38,405 bases of DNA from IMG/VR virus record IMGVR_UViG_2639762960_000007; one strand, given 5' to 3'. Of the stretch, positions 5,720 to 32,465 are shown one piece after another. The stretch's first letter is position 1. Every line of letters starts with the position of its first letter. This DNA is from a virus (lineage: Duplodnaviria; Heunggongvirae; Uroviricota; Caudoviricetes). Position numbers and translations under genes: made by a program. The notes below the pieces were generated by a model. The model had not been told where the DNA came from. It saw only the letters and a program-made list of their open reading frames with translations, and ran no database searches.

Positions 5720-6057
5720 AGCAGCTCCTGAGTCCGGGTCTGTCCGTCTGAGCCTTTCCAGCTCACCCGGAGCGTAAGATGTTCGCCGTCGACGGCGGGT
5801 TTAACTGACATAAGCTGGCAGCGGGGCTCCCAGCGCCGGATGGCATCGACGGATTCGCGAACCACATGCGGAATGGCCCGGTCGACAGGCCAGTCGATAT
5901 AAAGGTGCAGATTGCTGCCGAACTCCGGGCGATGCGGGTCGCTGCCGCGGGGAGTCCGCAGGATGATTTGGATGGACTGCCGGATATCATCCAGCCCCCT
6001 GACGATTTCGCCGGAAGCCTGCAGAGCTGGTTGCCAGAATACTGAGGTCGTTTTCAT
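5710..6057 (-). CDS. Baseplate protein, P2 gpW / T4 gp25-like
   Basis: 115 aa; ATG at 6055..6057; position between V-like and J-like genes. Confidence 0.75.
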   Translation of the reverse strand: MKTTSVFWQPALQASGEIVRGLDDIRQSIQIILRTPRGSDPHRPEFGSNLHLYIDWPVDRAIPHVVRESVDAIRRWEPRCQLMSVKPAVDGEHLTLRVSWKGSDGQTRTQELLWR

Positions 6058-6113
6058 GGAGGCAGTATTGCCCCCGGGAAGTAAGCGCCGATATTAAAGG
6101 CGTTTAAGAAGGT

Positions 6114-6641
6114 TCAATGGGAATGGTGATTAGAGTTCTGACCATCGGCAAATATGTCACCCGTTGCATGGGCGCTTCCGTTGATTTCCAGATCACCGTT
6201 GAGTGTCGCGTTGCCGTTGATTGTGGTAACTCCCGTGAGGTCAATGCTTTTCCCTTCCAGTGAGATATCGGCGGCAACCTCCACCACGATACGCTCAATA
6301 CCTCCTCTGACCGTCAGCGTATGGGTCGCGCGGTTATAACTGAACTCCGCGCCATCAGCGTACTTCGTGCCCCGGACGTTTTTATCACTGAACGGTGGTT
6401 TATCGACGTCTGAATACACCGCGCCCAGAATAACACCATCCTCGCCGTTGGCATCGAGCAGCACCTCAACCTGCTCCCCCACGTCAGGGAGCCAGTAATC
6501 TTTGTTATCCTGGGTATTGCGCTGCAGCACGTTAAGCCAGTTTGTGCGCAGGTTATCGCATTCAGGCAGACGAACGCGGGCCTGAACCCTGTCGGCATCA
6601 ACGGCACTGACCGTACCGACCTGACGAGTGACACCAGTCAT
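6114..6641 (-). CDS. Baseplate spike/assembly protein, P2 gpV-like
   Basis: 175 aa; ATG at 6639..6641 overlapping the upstream gene's stop; Gly/Asp-rich C-terminus with His-rich tip typical of V-type spikes. Confidence 0.75.
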   Translation of the reverse strand: MTGVTRQVGTVSAVDADRVQARVRLPECDNLRTNWLNVLQRNTQDNKDYWLPDVGEQVEVLLDANGEDGVILGAVYSDVDKPPFSDKNVRGTKYADGAEFSYNRATHTLTVRGGIERIVVEVAADISLEGKSIDLTGVTTINGNATLNGDLEINGSAHATGDIFADGQNSNHHSH

Positions 6642-25451: not shown

Positions 25452-25565
25452 GTGTGTCTCCTCGTTTGGTGGAGACAGCATCACAAATGTGGCGGGATAC
25501 GGATTTTAAACAGCGTTAATAGTGAAGATGTAAACGTGCACTGCATGATGGCTTTGAAAGAACGA

Positions 25566-25593
25566 CCAGCCCGGTACCCGAACACCGGGCTGG
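25566..25593 (-). terminator. GC-rich hairpin (10-bp perfect stem, 8-nt loop); candidate minus-strand terminator
   Basis: ccagcccggt-acccgaac-accgggctgg; on the minus strand it is followed by tcgttctttc. Confidence 0.35.
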
Positions 25594-25698
25594 CCATCGC
25601 CCCACAGGAATGCGCTGTGAGCCGACCAAGGTTCAGTCAGTCTCGCGAGACCAGACTAGCCTGCCATATTTTTTATAATTGTAAAAGGCTTACAGATT

Positions 25699-26469
25699 AT
25701 GAAAATGCAGACATTACCCATCGTTCCATGGATTGGTGGCAAACGCCGCCTTGCAAAACACATCCTGCCGCTGTTTCCGGCGCATGAATGTTATGTGGAG
25801 CCGTTTTGTGGGGCAGCAGCGCTCTATTTTCTTAAGGTACCCGGCAAGATCGAAGTCATTAATGATATCAACGGTGAGCTGGTGAACCTGTATCGGGTGG
25901 TAAAACATCATCTGGAAGAATTTGTACGCCAGTTCAAATGGGCGCTGGTCAGCCGGCAGATCTACAAATGGCTGCAGATCACCCCGGAAGAAACACTGAC
26001 GGATATCCAGCGTGCAGCACGGTTCTACTACCTTCAGAAGCAGGCGTTTGGGGGCAAGGTGGCGGAGCACAGCTTTGGTACCTCCACCATATCCCCGCCA
26101 CGCTTCAACCTGCTGCGTATTGAAGAAGAACTGTCAGCGGCACACCTGCGGCTTTCCAGAACGGTCATAGAACACATGGACTGGCAACAGTGCATAGAAC
26201 GATATGATCGCCCGCATACGTTGTTCTACTGTGACCCTCCATACTGGGGAACGGAAGGTTATGGTGTGGAGTTCGGACTAGAAAATTATGATCATATGGC
26301 AGATTTAGCACGCAGGATCAAAGGGAAGATGATTATATCGGTGAACGATATCCCGGAAATGCGGCAGGCATTCAACGGTCTAAATATTCAGTCGGTTGAT
26401 ATCAGCTACAACCTCAAGATCACTGGCAAATCCAGTCGCAAGAAGGAACTCATTATCCTCAACTTTTGA
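25699..26469 (+). CDS. N6-adenine DNA methyltransferase, Dam (D12 class)-like, orphan
   Basis: 256 aa; ATG at 25699; motif I-like EPFCGAAAL and catalytic DPPY (FYCDPPYW); no adjacent restriction endonuclease candidate. Confidence 0.85.
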   Translation: MKMQTLPIVPWIGGKRRLAKHILPLFPAHECYVEPFCGAAALYFLKVPGKIEVINDINGELVNLYRVVKHHLEEFVRQFKWALVSRQIYKWLQITPEETLTDIQRAARFYYLQKQAFGGKVAEHSFGTSTISPPRFNLLRIEEELSAAHLRLSRTVIEHMDWQQCIERYDRPHTLFYCDPPYWGTEGYGVEFGLENYDHMADLARRIKGKMIISVNDIPEMRQAFNGLNIQSVDISYNLKITGKSSRKKELIILNF

Positions 26470-27664
26470 CCGAATAGTAAGACTTCATGCAGTGAATCAA
26501 GTACTGCATGAAGTCAAGGGCTGGTTTTGTGTACCAAAAATAAACAGTGATAGCGGTAATAATTCCCATAACTAGAACACCACGTATAATCCAGAACGTA
26601 CGTTTCTGCGTGTCTAGTCGCGCAGAAATACTGCTAAATACACCAGCCACGTCATCTTTAATGAAGGAATATTCCTTATTAATCTGTTTTTCTTTGTATT
26701 CAATTTCTTCGCCTAAGGCCTTTATAGATTGCATCTGGTTCGAAAGTGCCAGCCAGATTAACGTTGCAGCAAAAATGCATCCCAGAAGAATTATTGTGTT
26801 TGTTATCCCTTGGCCTGACCATTTCGTAGCCACTTTGAATTGGGTAGCTACGATAACAGAGGCAACAGGAATGCCAAGTATATGGTTCTGGATATCTGAA
26901 AACGCTTTGTGGATTTTACCCATTTCTTCGACTTTTGCAGCACGCAGTTGATCCATTACTTTGTCATAAGAGAATCCAGAAGAGTAGATACGATACCCTT
27001 TCAGAAACTTTTCATGCAGACGCTGAATATTGTCCAGTAAATAAGCGAATACTAGAGGTGAATCAATTCCATCACTAACTGCTTGAATACTTTCAATCAG
27101 AATATCTAGCTTCTGATCCTTATGGGTATCATCATTGAAACAAGCTATAAGGTTATCAAGATACTCCCTTTGCAAATTTTGTACATTTTCTGCAGCGAAG
27201 TGCGGTAATAGCTTGATAACTTCTTTTTTCAGAAAAACTAACTGACAAGTTGAGTTATCAAAGTAGGCCGCGGCCTCTTTTAGCAGGTTAACGAACTCGA
27301 GAATCTTCCGGTAGTTGCTGATGAAAACGGGGATATCTTCATCATCATTACGAAATTTTGTTTCTAGGATGAAGTAATTAGCTGGCTCAAGGCACTGATG
27401 CTTTGGAGCATTTAGCAATTTTTCATGGGTGGAAAACACAAGTCCCAGTCCACTCCGTGGTGACGTCACACGTAGGATGATCGTGTTACCTGGAGCGATA
27501 GTGCCTGTATCAATAGAAAGACCATATTCACGAGGATCATCAAGCAAAGTATCAACCAGATCACAATCGGACTGATCTAAGAGCAACAGCGAACCGACAC
27601 GAAACCCCTCTTGGAATTCCATACGACGATACAGAGCTGTCAGCATCTCAAATGAAATCGCCAC
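26459..27664 (-). CDS. Protein with ~270-aa soluble N-terminal domain and three C-terminal TM helices; second gene of the repressor-linked cassette (candidate effector)
   Basis: 401-aa ORF starting at GTG 27662..27664, two nt after the upstream gene's TAA, with GAGG upstream; alternative ATG at 27646. Hydrophobic segments IPVASVIVATQF, ITNTIILLGCIFAATLIWLALS and TFWIIRGVLVMGIITAITVYFWY. AT-rich codon usage. Confidence 0.65.
   Translation of the reverse strand: MAISFEMLTALYRRMEFQEGFRVGSLLLLDQSDCDLVDTLLDDPREYGLSIDTGTIAPGNTIILRVTSPRSGLGLVFSTHEKLLNAPKHQCLEPANYFILETKFRNDDEDIPVFISNYRKILEFVNLLKEAAAYFDNSTCQLVFLKKEVIKLLPHFAAENVQNLQREYLDNLIACFNDDTHKDQKLDILIESIQAVSDGIDSPLVFAYLLDNIQRLHEKFLKGYRIYSSGFSYDKVMDQLRAAKVEEMGKIHKAFSDIQNHILGIPVASVIVATQFKVATKWSGQGITNTIILLGCIFAATLIWLALSNQMQSIKALGEEIEYKEKQINKEYSFIKDDVAGVFSSISARLDTQKRTFWIIRGVLVMGIITAITVYFWYTKPALDFMQYLIHCMKSYYSVKS
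26481..26515. other. Perfect 13-bp-stem inverted repeat at the convergent junction of the methyltransferase and cassette genes
   Basis: gacttcatgcagt-gaatcaagt-actgcatgaagtc, 12 nt after the methyltransferase stop and inside the last ~20 codons of the minus-strand membrane-protein ORF. Confidence 0.4.
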
Positions 27665-27666
27665 GA

Positions 27667-28674
27667 TTAAACCTCAGTCATCCACATTTCCCTAAATTCT
27701 TCAGGTACATTACGTAGGGTGATAATATTTGTTTCCGGATCATAATCAATATAGCCTTCAGTTTTCCCTTCCCGGTCAAACTTAAGTTCCCAATATTTAG
27801 ACTTGCCTTTAAAAGATACCAGAGCCCGAATGACTCGACCATCAGGAACGAAGCCATCCGATAACTCCAACTCTTCAGCAGCAAGTTTACCAGATAACTC
27901 CTCGGGAGCCTGGGGCCAAATGGCATTAACAAGGGTTTCAAGACTAAGTGGTTCACCAGCCTTACTTAGTGCATGTAAGTGTTCAAACGCACTCTTAAGA
28001 AATGCATCTTTTTCAGCGCCGTCAAGTCCTTTCTCTGCCGCAAATGCTTTTAAAACGTCACGTAACTTTTCAGACTCTCGTTTGGCGATTAAGACATCAT
28101 TACAGCCTAGGAACTGTTTAAAATAGTTTGAAACATTACCTTGCCCCTTAAGAAAACTGATATAGCGCTCTGCGCCACTTTCCCACGCGGTTAAGTCAAT
28201 GCGCCCAGCCATACGCAGCTTAGCAATATCAAGATAGGTACTATCTTGGATGTTAAAATCATCTGTGACAGTGGACCCAATGGTAGCGCTTACAATAGCT
28301 ATCAACAGGTGTTCATTGTGTCCTATCACGATATTTGCAAAAAGAACATAACCACCAGTAGCCATGTTTTCTCGCTGAGAACGTTCCGTCAGGTGATGCA
28401 TCATTCGGCAGGAACTTTGGTAGAAATCATCAACACCTTCGAGAAAGTCCCCAGCCATTCGTTCCATAGGATAGTTATCCGTATCGCCTTCAAAATAGCC
28501 ATAACCTTTACCTGTGCGTCCTGCATATTTTGCACAAATATCGTTTATAAGGCGCTGAGAGGCTTCAGTAACTAGACCTTCTTCAGGACTCAATCTCTCA
28601 GAAGCGTCTCCATTTTGTTGTTTGTCTAAAATGTGAACTACAACGTGTTTAACTTCAATGGTCTGCTCAGACAT
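27667..28674 (-). CDS. NdpA/YejK (NA37)-like nucleoid-associated-protein homologue; first gene of the repressor-linked cassette (candidate sensor)
   Basis: 335 aa; ATG at 28672..28674 preceded by GGTGGA. It matches the length and several blocks of E. coli YejK as I recall it (GGYVLF, LLIAIVS, YLDIAKLRMAGRIDLTAWESG, RYISFLKGQG, IITLRNVPEEFRE). The family call is from memory, not a search. Confidence 0.55.
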   Translation of the reverse strand: MSEQTIEVKHVVVHILDKQQNGDASERLSPEEGLVTEASQRLINDICAKYAGRTGKGYGYFEGDTDNYPMERMAGDFLEGVDDFYQSSCRMMHHLTERSQRENMATGGYVLFANIVIGHNEHLLIAIVSATIGSTVTDDFNIQDSTYLDIAKLRMAGRIDLTAWESGAERYISFLKGQGNVSNYFKQFLGCNDVLIAKRESEKLRDVLKAFAAEKGLDGAEKDAFLKSAFEHLHALSKAGEPLSLETLVNAIWPQAPEELSGKLAAEELELSDGFVPDGRVIRALVSFKGKSKYWELKFDREGKTEGYIDYDPETNIITLRNVPEEFREMWMTEV

Positions 28675-28744
28675 TGGCTATCCACCTTATTTTTTATTGC
28701 TTAATGGCAAATAATTTCTGCTATATGTTCTCGTTAGGAACACA

Positions 28745-29152
28745 TTAACCCACATTTTTTAACCGCTCAATCGTTGCGGATAATTCCTTCAGTTGTTTTT
28801 CCATCTCAATCACACGCTGTTTTTCTTCAGCGCCTCGCATGAGATCTCGCCGAACCTCAGGATCTAACTGGTTTAGAAGTTCAAGCATTTTAAGGTCTGA
28901 CGGGCTGAATTGATGTTGTGTTGGTACAGCAACAATTTCTTTAGATGGAATATGTTCTTTACCGGTAAGTAGCCAATCGATTGATACACCCAAATGGGTA
29001 CTTAGCGCAACAAGAGCCTCTGCGTTTGGTTCTCTCTCTCCACGCAAATAGTTTTGAAGTGAGCGATATGGAATTTTTGATAAGTCAGATAATGCCTTTA
29101 TTGTCATGCCATTAGCATCCATCACTTCACGCAATCTCTCTTTTGTACTCAT
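28745..29152 (-). CDS. Phage repressor, HTH (XRE/Cro-C1 type) with C-terminal coiled coil
   Basis: ATG at 29150..29152 gives 135 aa starting MSTKERLREVMDANGMTIKALSDLSKIPYRSLQNYLRG; divergent from the early operon across an operator-like region. Confidence 0.7.
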   Translation of the reverse strand: MSTKERLREVMDANGMTIKALSDLSKIPYRSLQNYLRGEREPNAEALVALSTHLGVSIDWLLTGKEHIPSKEIVAVPTQHQFSPSDLKMLELLNQLDPEVRRDLMRGAEEKQRVIEMEKQLKELSATIERLKNVG

Positions 29153-29168
29153 TTGAACATATCTCAAT

Positions 29169-29196
29169 TTGACACACTCATTTGGGTGTGTACAAT
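29169..29196 (+). promoter_or_regulatory. Candidate early promoter (-35 TTGACA, 16-bp spacer, -10 TACAAT) overlapped by an operator-like dyad
   Basis: TTGACA at 29169..29174 and TACAAT at 29191..29196, 45 bp upstream of the Ner-like ATG; dyad ACACAC-N8-GTGTGT (29172..29191) spans the spacer. Confidence 0.5.
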
Positions 29197-29240
29197 AGAC
29201 CCAATAGAGTACATCATAACCTAACAGGAACACGGTGCAT

Positions 29241-29465
29241 ATGAACAAACAACAAGTTCGGGCACGGCTGGTTGAACGAGGCAGTAGCTTGCGCCAGTTC
29301 GCGCTTAACGCGGGCTATGAACCACGAACAGTCACCCAGGCAGTCAGTCGCTGGGCTGGTAAAAGTGAACTACCTCGCGGTCGTTTGACTTATCGGATTT
29401 TGCGAGATCTATCGGTTGCAATAGGTAAAGAAGTTACCCCCGGTATCCTTAAGGAGGCGTCATGA
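29241..29465 (+). CDS. ner: Ner-like DNA-binding protein
   Basis: ATG at 29241 (track start is GTG two codons upstream); 74 aa with LRQFALNAGYEPRTVTQAVSRW resembling the Mu Ner HTH region; first gene of the early operon. Confidence 0.65.
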   Translation: MNKQQVRARLVERGSSLRQFALNAGYEPRTVTQAVSRWAGKSELPRGRLTYRILRDLSVAIGKEVTPGILKEAS

Positions 29466-30695: not shown

Positions 30696-32465
30696 ATGAA
30701 TGCTGCCCTGACTGAACGACTGGTTTATGTCGCCCGCGCGGCACGTGACGCGGGGCATGGTAAACGCGGTGCAATATACGACGCTGCCTGTGCTGAACTT
30801 GGCATGTCCCGCGCCACTCTGCTGCGCAGGCTGAAGGAGGTCTCTGTGACTGATAAACGCAAAAAACGCGCCGATGCCGGGCGCAGCGCCCTGACCCGCG
30901 ACGAAGCCGCGCTGATATCTGCCACACTGCGTGAGGCCACCCGCAAGAACGGTAAGCGTCTCTATTCCATCGCAGATGCAGTGGAAACCCTGCGGGCTAA
31001 CGGCTTTATCTCCGCAGGCAGAACAGATGAAACCACCGGTGAGTTTTTCCCGTTGTCCGAAGATGCCATCAGCCGTGCCCTGCGTAACTATGGCCTGCAC
31101 CCGGAACAACTGGATGCCCCTGCGCCGCATACCGAAGTGGCCAGTCTGCATCCCAATCACGTCTGGCAGATTGATGCCTCGCTCTGCACGCTTTACTACC
31201 TGAGCAATGGACACAAAGGGCTGCAGGTGATGGACAGCGCGAAATTCTACAAGAACAAGCCCGCTAACCTTGCCCGTATCGCCAGTGACCGCGTGTGGAG
31301 TTATGAGATTACCGACCATGCCAGCGGCTGGATTTACGTTGAGTATGTGACGGGTGCGGAATCCGGTGAGAACCTGTGTTCTGTGCTTATCAACGCCATG
31401 CAGGAGCGTGGCGGCGCAGACGTGCTGCACGGCGTGCCAAAAATACTCTATCTCGACCCCGGCTCGGCAAACACCGCGGGTATGACGAAAAACATGTGCC
31501 GCTCACTGGGCATTGACCTGATAGCGCACAAGCCGCATAACGCCCGCGCCACCGGACAGGTGGAAAAGGCGCGGGACATTATCGAACGCAAGCTGGAGCC
31601 GGGTCTGAAGTTCCGGCCGGTTCACAGTCTGGAAGAACTCAACGCGCTGGCCGCGAAATGGCGCAGCCACTTTAACGCCACGGCTGTTCACAGCCGCCAC
31701 GGTAAAACCCGCACGGATATCTGGCTGAAGATTACTGCTGAGCAGCTGAAAAAAGCGCCTTCCGTTGAGGTATGTCGTGAACTGGCTGTGGCGGCACCAG
31801 AACTCCGCAAAGTCACGCCAAAACTTCGTGTCTCGTTCCGGGGCACTGAATTTGACGTATCAACGGTACCGGGCGTACTGGTTGGTGAAAAACTGATGAT
31901 TACCCGTAACCCATGGCGCAGCGATGTGGCACAGGTGGTTCTGACCGGTGAGGACGGCCACGAGACGTTCTTCCTGGTCGAAGAGGTCAGAAAGAACGAG
32001 TTTGGCTTTGCTGAAGGCGCGGCGGTATTTGGCGAAAGTTACAAAGCCCTGCCGGAAACCCCGGCACAGATGGCGGCAAAAGAAACTGAAGCGCTGGTTA
32101 CCGGTACAGACAACGCCGCAGATGCAGCCGCCGCACGCAAGGCGAAGGCGCTGCCGTTCGGCGGGCGGCTTGACCCGTATAAACATATCGACGACACCAC
32201 ACTTCCGGCCTATATGCCGAAGCGTGGTCAGGCCTCTGACGTACGCGGGCCGCGCACTGAACAACGTCCCATGACTCATGTGGAGGCCGCGAAAGCCCTG
32301 CGCGATAAGTTCAGCGCCGACGGCCTTACCTGGACGCCGGAACATTACCGCCAGTTAACGGCACAGTACCCGGACGGCGTACCGGAAGCCGCACTGGATG
32401 AAGTCATGGCCACGCTGACCACACCGGCCAGCAGCAGTGTTATCAGCATTGTTAACGGCAACTGA
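30696..32465 (+). CDS. DDE transposase (Mu A-like function, integrase-core type)
   Basis: 589 aa; ATG at 30696 preceded by GGAGG; N-terminal HTH-like region; candidate catalytic acidic residues in WQIDAS and YLDPGSAN, with a downstream Glu. Confidence 0.8.
   Translation: MNAALTERLVYVARAARDAGHGKRGAIYDAACAELGMSRATLLRRLKEVSVTDKRKKRADAGRSALTRDEAALISATLREATRKNGKRLYSIADAVETLRANGFISAGRTDETTGEFFPLSEDAISRALRNYGLHPEQLDAPAPHTEVASLHPNHVWQIDASLCTLYYLSNGHKGLQVMDSAKFYKNKPANLARIASDRVWSYEITDHASGWIYVEYVTGAESGENLCSVLINAMQERGGADVLHGVPKILYLDPGSANTAGMTKNMCRSLGIDLIAHKPHNARATGQVEKARDIIERKLEPGLKFRPVHSLEELNALAAKWRSHFNATAVHSRHGKTRTDIWLKITAEQLKKAPSVEVCRELAVAAPELRKVTPKLRVSFRGTEFDVSTVPGVLVGEKLMITRNPWRSDVAQVVLTGEDGHETFFLVEEVRKNEFGFAEGAAVFGESYKALPETPAQMAAKETEALVTGTDNAADAAAARKAKALPFGGRLDPYKHIDDTTLPAYMPKRGQASDVRGPRTEQRPMTHVEAAKALRDKFSADGLTWTPEHYRQLTAQYPDGVPEAALDEVMATLTTPASSSVISIVNGN

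Follow-up and report, generated by a model that had tools for sequence, protein, structure and literature searches.

A membrane protein encoded beside a YejK-type nucleoid-associated protein in a Mu-like prophage is a likely component of a divergent anti-phage cassette

What is the role of a membrane protein gene that sits between the DNA methyltransferase and the repressor of a prophage, and that RefSeq lists, at identical coordinates, as a 'hypothetical protein' (WP_001007984.1)? We addressed this question in the IMG/VR virus record IMGVR_UViG_2639762960_000007, a stretch of 38,405 nucleotides (hereafter the window) that is essentially one Mu-like (transposable) Escherichia coli prophage. 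The gene, at positions 26459-27664 on the minus strand, is the second of a two-gene cassette, the first gene of which encodes a nucleoid-associated protein (NAP) of the YejK/NdpA family; we refer to its product as the partner. The initial annotation of this locus, made from the sequence alone, had likened the partner to membrane-disrupting abortive-infection effectors. Considering the evidence below, we judge it likely that the partner is the membrane-anchored output component of a NAP-sensed prophage abortive-infection cassette, a divergent member of the group formed by the DS-1 and type II PANGU defence systems.

The open reading frame (ORF) of the partner is a real gene and not a chance one, because a word-indexed search returned at least 166 homologues (all unnamed or labelled 'phage-related membrane protein'), a full hidden Markov model scan found 1287 clusters at 50% identity (E<=1e-3), and the protein matches PHROG 5023 (phrog_5023, function not assigned there) at E=2e-142. 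Surveying one genome per species, we obtained 67 related loci from gamma-, beta- and alphaproteobacteria and from a few metagenome-assembled genomes (MAGs) of other phyla. A homologue with the NA37 domain lay directly upstream of the partner, on the same strand, in 64/67 of these loci, which makes the partner an obligate companion of the NdpA-like gene and agrees with the initial annotation, where it was called a cassette partner; the three exceptions were C-terminal partner fragments in Cupriavidus. In the window, the partner's GTG follows the NA37 stop by 2 nt, and the tight junction behind the translational coupling noted at the outset recurs elsewhere: the partner start abuts or overlaps the NA37 stop in 62 of the 64 loci (within -20 to +40 nt), with overlaps of 11 and 8 nt being the commonest. 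Among the 150 nearest neighbour ORFs there was no third conserved gene around the pair. These neighbours include phage integrases, a resolvase, TniQ, a type IV secretion system (T4SS) coupling protein, a Mu portal protein, antiterminator Q, DNA methyltransferases, Fic and three Septu PtuA ATPases, as is usual for mobile and defence DNA. The pair also occurs in Sinorhizobium phage phi2LM21, in a Klebsiella phage and in gut phage contigs. NAP and partner form a conserved mobile module. Their identities to the window pair co-vary across loci (rho = 0.76), a correlation that weighs little because shared phylogeny yields the same signal.

Some of the surveyed loci have features of their own. On three Cupriavidus contigs, one of them labelled plasmid-derived, positions 6001-6606 encode partner residues 191-392 alone, at 44% identity and with no NA37 gene upstream; these fragments may be truncated remnants or stand-alone membrane modules. 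The NAP-partner pair was also present in a Thermoanaerobaculia MAG and a Candidatus Yonathbacteria MAG, of phyla distant from Proteobacteria, which could reflect inter-phylum transfer or a binning artefact; inter-phylum transfer has been claimed for the type II cluster of PANGU (10.64898/2026.04.06.716658). In phage phi2LM21 (628-3718), the p68/p67 pair overlaps by 8 nt and is convergent with an adenine-specific DNA methyltransferase gene, as in the window. Methyltransferases recur as neighbours at other loci, and this recurrence may be a coincidence or a sign of linked function.

The protein families that match the cassette point to defence. DS-1 is the DefensePredictor working system D390 (Science 2026), which was cloned in MG1655 and is listed as validated. 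Its two proteins are WP_000355468.1 (zinc ribbon and NA37) and WP_000150292.1 (404 amino acids, aa); the same paper names the 'YejK nucleoid-associated domain' as newly validated in defence (PMC13092281). In NCBIfam (release 20), the partner matches NF053869, DS1_2_antiphage, at E=3e-21 (75.9 bits; residues 74-366 against positions 31-329 of the 337-position profile), and the window NAP matches NF053868, DS1_1 'nucleoid-associated anti-phage protein', at E=1.4e-17 (63.7 bits). We aligned the partner with 57 homologues, the family to which all conservation and hydropathy counts below refer; NF053869 was matched by 57/57 of these homologues, each time at a score under its equivalog cut-off, and no other family was. 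Moreover, an hhalign comparison of the family alignment with DS-1B (WP_000150292.1) gave a probability of 95.8% and E=7e-9 over 273 columns, with a D-x-H-K motif in common. Both cassette proteins are homologous to their DS-1 counterparts. The DS-1 proteins themselves exceed the equivalog cut-offs of their families (315 bits for NF053869, in which WP_000150292.1 scores 375 bits, and 330 bits for NF053868), whereas the window pair scores far below them and is only about 22% (partner) and 23% (NAP) identical to DS-1, so that the pair is a homologous but separate subfamily and not an equivalog.

Both systems have two genes in equal order, with NA37 ahead of a partner that is about 400 aa long and hydrophobic in its C-terminal region; the N-terminal charge of DS-1B is similar (isoelectric point, pI, 5.2; net -9), and both come from E. 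coli mobile DNA. They differ in that the DS-1 NAP has an N-terminal zinc ribbon, which the window NAP lacks, and in that the window NAP is nearer to chromosomal YejK (NF001557, 186 bits, below the cut-off of 341) than to DS1_1 (64 bits). Furthermore, the transmembrane (TM) segments of the window partner are much more hydrophobic than those of DS-1B. Searched against Pfam, the partner belongs to no family, its sole hit being a sub-threshold match to SoxE_N (E=0.037); with PHROG 5023 and the NCBIfam DS1_2 'anti-phage protein' as its only families, it is not a transporter or a housekeeping membrane protein, in agreement with the initial annotation, which had found it less like a transporter than like an effector. 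The WP accessions of the window pair, WP_000003711.1 and WP_001007984.1, did not occur in the literature searched, which took in parts of the DefensePredictor supplements.

A second published group matches the cassette in architecture. PANGU systems are bicistronic operons of a YejK-like NAP and an effector (bioRxiv April 2026, 10.64898/2026.04.06.716658). In type II PANGU, the NAP Pag2A is paired with Pag2B, which has an N-terminal soluble and a C-terminal TM domain and is named the effector; both genes were needed against T4, neither construct was toxic, and growth curves indicate abortive infection, with stunted growth at high multiplicity of infection (MOI) (10.64898/2026.04.06.716658). 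Pag2A-GFP leaves the nucleoid upon T4 infection, and the isolated N-terminal domain of Pag2B binds Pag2A with a dissociation constant (KD) of 19 nM; how Pag2A activates Pag2B was left to be determined, and the preprint floats PagB as a possible sensor that licenses PagA (10.64898/2026.04.06.716658). For PANGU, phage escape has pointed to T4 EndoII, a nuclease that degrades host DNA. Both DS-1 and PANGU guard against unrelated lytic phages (PMC13092281; 10.64898/2026.04.06.716658). Three defining features of type II PANGU are found in the cassette: an NA37 NAP, a gap between the genes of 2 nt (the published criterion being <40 bp), and a soluble N-terminus followed by a C-terminal TM domain. 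Type II PANGU is, like the cassette, bicistronic, of E. coli origin and linked to mobile elements and defence genes. Type I PANGU (Pag1A with the GRel toxSAS Pag1B) has the same NAP sensor family and a NAP that activates its partner via a dedicated docking domain, but its effector is a soluble alarmone synthetase, and the window partner has no toxSAS domain according to Pfam.

Anti-phage activity, the abortive-infection phenotype, NAP relocation and nanomolar binding all come from these related systems, and we infer by analogy that they may extend to the divergent subfamily of the window. The abortive-infection effector proposed in the initial annotation fits the published 'effector' label and the corresponding phenotype of type II PANGU; the membrane disruption that it also proposed is foremost among the points that we infer, and stays conjectural. 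Treated at first as something new, the window cassette is instead a divergent member of a kind of system published, with validation, in 2026 as DS-1 and PANGU.

The architecture of the partner was read from Kyte-Doolittle hydropathy in 19-residue windows, from a Wimley-White octanol scan, and from AlphaFold2 models (Table 1). By these measures the soluble part of the partner spans about 260 residues, and of the three TM helices behind it two are firm and one is marginal. The layout first described, a large soluble domain with three C-terminal TM helices, was retained in outline, with a soluble part of about 260 and not about 270 residues and with one of the three helices reduced to marginal. 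That helix, hydrophobic segment 1, has a Kyte-Doolittle peak of 1.62 (borderline) and a Wimley-White value of -3.3 kcal/mol, and is marginal in every homologue (median Kyte-Doolittle 1.26, n=57); no other motif of the protein is as well conserved (IPVATVIVATQMK; P266, A268, T274 and K277 are invariant). Residues 1-255 contain no comparable hydrophobic segment by Kyte-Doolittle. Segments 2 and 3 are joined by a 45-residue loop with many K and R residues (median 8), which by the positive-inside rule is probably cytoplasmic, and the protein would have a three-pass topology with its N-terminus inside.

In the full-length AlphaFold2 model (pLDDT 81.6), an alpha/beta and helical N-terminal part leads to a very long predicted helix (213-275) that runs into segment 1, and segments 2 and 3 are contained in two further long helices (285-331 and 333-378). 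The N-terminal 212 residues modelled alone reached pLDDT 94 and pTM 0.88; the modelled domain has no solved relative, and its resemblance to the LAGLIDADG/WhiA fold is faint. Besides those in segment 1 and the pair N309/Q310, the invariant residues include D179/H181 and R349/Q353. A PDB profile search with the family alignment gave chance-level matches only (XerA and RhsFi, E about 1), and Foldseek with the full partner model against the PDB gave nothing below E=0.29. ClyA, CorA/Mrs2 and AhlB appeared among the full-length structure matches and were given no weight, being generic helical bundles with a large root-mean-square deviation. An identity with KwaA, the membrane protein of the Kiwa system, was likewise rejected: the PADLOC hit (E=8e-5, residues 262-394) occurred in only 3/57 members, and the partner model consists of helices throughout, no more than three of them TM. 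KwaA was also absent from the PDB structure and sequence hits.

The alignment of the first cassette protein with E. coli YejK (PDB 9be2, E=7e-30) covers its full length. YejK is a ring-shaped dimeric, sequence-independent DNA clamp, in which the R173A/R176A/K177A substitutions abolish DNA binding and R276A/R280A/K284A reduce it (PMC11229321). Across the cassette NAPs (n=57), position 173 is R or K in 46/57, position 176 is deleted in 52/57 and position 177 is acidic in 40/57, while the second basic patch, in the C-domain, is retained or enriched in K and R. As the first triad is changed and the second patch kept or enriched, the alignment suggests that DNA binding by these NAPs is likely modified rather than lost.

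The cassette is accessory cargo within the prophage. The prophage carries terminase, lysis and tail genes on its minus strand, has a divergent early operon with a DDE transposase gene (30696-32465) and an ExeA/MuB-like gene, and also encodes a Dam-type methyltransferase and a CI-like repressor, between which the cassette is placed. The 3' ends of the partner gene and the convergent Dam gene share 11 nt, an overlap already described for this locus. The GC content of the cassette is 0.42-0.44, compared with about 0.57 for the backbone and about 0.55-0.60 elsewhere in the prophage. Among 5426 complete E. coli genomes scanned, the cassette was present in 19 at 92-100% identity, with the Dam gene adjoining every time, and the backbone Dam gene was present in 556. 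In sibling prophages of ST131 O25b:H4 and of strain 83972 the repressor follows directly after the Dam gene, with no cassette. Since these siblings carry the Dam gene without the cassette, that gene is a neighbour and lies outside the conserved module.

The repressor-adjacent position recalls RexA/RexB of phage lambda, a two-gene exclusion module in the prophage immunity region that combines a cytoplasmic sensor with a small polytopic membrane protein and acts by abortive infection. This likeness is a functional analogy in layout, with no homology claimed: RexB, which has four TM helices, lacks a large cytoplasmic domain, and Rex has no sequence or family match to the cassette in Pfam or PADLOC.

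Taking type II PANGU, in which a NAP freed from the damaged nucleoid binds its partner and brings about abortive infection, as the source of the mechanism, we chart a model for the cassette. In the lysogen both genes would be expressed, probably from the transcript of the repressor and with translational coupling. The NAP dimer would sit on DNA, and the inner membrane would hold the partner, whose N-terminal 260 residues would face the cytoplasm. An infecting phage that damages or degrades the host chromosome would free the NAP, which would then bind the cytoplasmic domain of the partner. This binding would be relayed by the conserved juxtamembrane helix and would switch on the C-terminal membrane domain (two firm TM helices, a marginal one and a cytoplasmic helical hairpin), probably via oligomerisation into a leak or channel. 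The infected cell would cease to grow and the phage yield would collapse, amounting to abortive infection.

Several observations count against this model and the assignment behind it. The family scores of both proteins lie far under the equivalog cut-offs (76 against 315 bits and 64 against 330 bits), such that function would be extrapolated over a large distance, and the likeness to type II PANGU is drawn from the published description and architecture rather than from the Pag2B sequence. The N-terminal domain of Pag2B is described as an acidic DNA mimic (DMK), whereas residues 1-255 of the partner (pI 5.1, net charge -10, 15% D+E; family median net -7, range -14 to 0) are mildly acidic and not obviously a DNA mimic. 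Searches of Pfam, PADLOC and the PDB, the latter by sequence and by structure, found no similarity between the partner and known pore-forming or membrane-disrupting effectors. At the positions of the YejK N-domain basic triad R173/R176/K177, the window NAP has Q, a gap and N; because that triad is needed for DNA binding by YejK, nucleoid association of the window NAP is an assumption and not assured. Lying 70 nt 3' of the repressor on the same strand, behind a spacer that has a good ribosome-binding site but lacks a convincing terminator, the cassette is plausibly expressed in the lysogen. It is position that suggests co-transcription with the repressor; consensus scans for promoters and terminators gave site counts no higher than those in shuffled controls, with no terminator-like site in 28675..28744.

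The lack of resemblance to known toxins in the structure searches would suit a reversed, Kiwa-like logic, in which the membrane protein senses phage attachment, DNA injection or envelope stress and the NAP is the effector, clamping phage DNA near the membrane and blocking replication without killing the cell. Kiwa itself joins KwaA, a TM sensor with four TM helices and an intracellular beta-barrel, to KwaB, which binds DNA non-specifically and acts at the membrane (PMC11785009), and it shares with the cassette the pairing of a membrane protein with a non-specific DNA-binding protein, a role that a sequence-independent clamp such as YejK could fill (PMC11229321). The weak PADLOC hit to KwaA, the harmlessness of either PANGU gene alone and the suggestion that PagB is a sensor licensing PagA favour the same arrangement. 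We nevertheless regard it as decidedly unlikely: the KwaA hit is confined to 3/57 members, the four TM helices and beta-barrel of KwaA contrast with the all-helical partner model, the gene order is reversed, KwaB combines a Rossmann-like domain with DUF4868 and not NA37, and the window NAP has no PADLOC match, KwaB included. Moreover, type II PANGU cells show stunted growth at high MOI, and their NAP moves off DNA upon infection. We consider it very unlikely that the pair stabilises the prophage as a toxin-antitoxin or addiction module, or as a narrow device for superinfection exclusion, with the NAP restraining a membrane toxin and with no general anti-phage role. A tightly coupled two-gene operon on mobile elements, a membrane protein with few TM helices and a repressor-adjacent position like that of some exclusion genes all speak for this reading, but in PANGU neither gene is toxic alone and the NAP is an activator rather than an antitoxin, and DS-1 and PANGU protect against unrelated lytic phages; the NAP-less partner copies of Cupriavidus are uninformative here, as their N-terminal half is absent.

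Mu-type transposition relies on host nucleoid proteins, and this transposable prophage has its early region next to the cassette, which raises the thought that the pair serves the phage's own life cycle, with the NAP organising or tethering Mu-like transposition or replication complexes and the membrane partner anchoring them. NdpA/YejK genes have also been noted in other temperate phages (PMC10305613). We find this hardly credible, given that the cassette is present in 19 genomes as against 556 with the Dam gene, that most siblings do without it, that its GC content is foreign to the backbone, and that the pair also occurs in non-Mu contexts (integrase islands, T4SS elements and beside Septu). 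In a further variation, the large subfamily would be a NAP-gated membrane device with a mechanism of its own, and Pag2B or DS-1B would not simply be copied in it. This reading is based on the combination of an alpha/beta domain, a long stalk helix, C-terminal TM helices and invariant polar rings at both membrane faces, together with the triad loss in the cassette NAPs. In such a device the N-terminal domain could bind DNA or a NAP-DNA complex, the layout could form a CorA-like gated ion channel, and the NAPs may sense something other than bulk chromosome integrity; we hold this to be unlikely.

As a probable abortive-infection system of the DS-1 and type II PANGU kind, the cassette extends the YejK-type nucleoid-protein defence systems by a large branch that is phage-borne and divergent in sequence. 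Plausibly expressed in the lysogen, it is carried as cargo by the repressor of a Mu-like prophage found commonly in E. coli, with relatives in ST131. Of the components of these systems, the membrane partner is the one least understood, and for its study the family offers at least 57 diverse sequences, a confident model of the N-terminal domain and a small set of invariant residues. For annotation, we suggest that WP_001007984.1 and its relatives, so far 'hypothetical protein', be named 'putative anti-phage membrane partner of a NAP'.

Table 1. Features of the cassette and its immediate surroundings, in window coordinates. KD, Kyte-Doolittle; WW, Wimley-White; AF2, AlphaFold2.
Feature	Coordinates	Strand	Basis
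Convergent Dam-type N6-adenine methyltransferase, prophage backbone	25699..26469	+	Pfam MethyltransfD12, E=7e-28
Partner gene, 401 aa, GTG start; soluble N-terminal part, then C-terminal membrane domain; related to DS1_2, likened to Pag2B	26459..27664	-	ORF; RefSeq; PHROG; NCBIfam; hhalign
TM helix 3 (predicted; residues 356-378)	26531..26599	-	KD 1.95; WW -8.3 kcal/mol; strongly hydrophobic in 57/57
Charged helical hairpin loop (residues 312-355), probably cytoplasmic	26600..26731	-	Median 8 K+R, 6 D+E; never hydrophobic; AF2 helices 285-331 and 333-378
TM helix 2 (predicted; residues 285-311)	26732..26812	-	KD 2.33; WW -10.9 kcal/mol; strongly hydrophobic in 57/57; G295, N309, Q310 invariant
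Hydrophobic segment 1 (residues 262-280, ILGIPVASVIVATQFKVAT), marginal TM helix, highly conserved	26825..26881	-	KD, WW, alignment
Long juxtamembrane helix (residues 213-261), FSYDK...AKVEEMGKIHK.FSDIQNQ, most conserved stretch of the family	26882..27028	-	Invariant and near-invariant columns; AF2 helix 213-275
N-terminal alpha/beta and helical cytoplasmic domain (residues 1-212), proposed NAP docking domain	27029..27664	-	
Gene junction: GAGG, 7 nt, GTG start; NA37 stop TAA at 27669-27667, 2 nt before the GTG at 27664	27662..27675	-	Sequence reading
First cassette gene: YejK/NdpA-family NAP, 335 aa, related to PagA and DS1_1	27667..28674	-	Pfam NA37, E=1e-80, full length
Spacer from repressor stop to NA37 start, 70 nt; AAGGTGGA ribosome-binding site; no convincing terminator	28675..28744	-	Sequence reading
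CI-like prophage repressor, directly upstream of the cassette, same strand	28745..29152 (RefSeq start)	-	Pfam HTH_3 and Phage_CI_repr; RefSeq WP_001513990.1

The Mu-like backbone has two alternative cargo slots, one between the holin and Dam genes (25485-25698 in the window) and one between the Dam and repressor genes (26459-28744). In the window prophage the NAP cassette fills the Dam-repressor slot and the holin-Dam slot is empty; in the siblings of ST131 O25b:H4 and strain 83972 three small hypothetical genes occupy the holin-Dam slot and the Dam-repressor slot is empty. Klebsiella phage KP12 has ORFs of 177 and 136 aa in the Dam-repressor slot.

For the repressor, the longest ORF spans 28745-29248 on the minus strand (167 aa, TTG start), and the RefSeq call spans 28745-29152 (135 aa). 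The best sigma-70-like site of the region, at 29169-29196 on the plus strand (TTGACA, 16 nt, TACAAT; 11/12 matches), points to the early operon. As this site is located between the two repressor starts, the shorter repressor is favoured.

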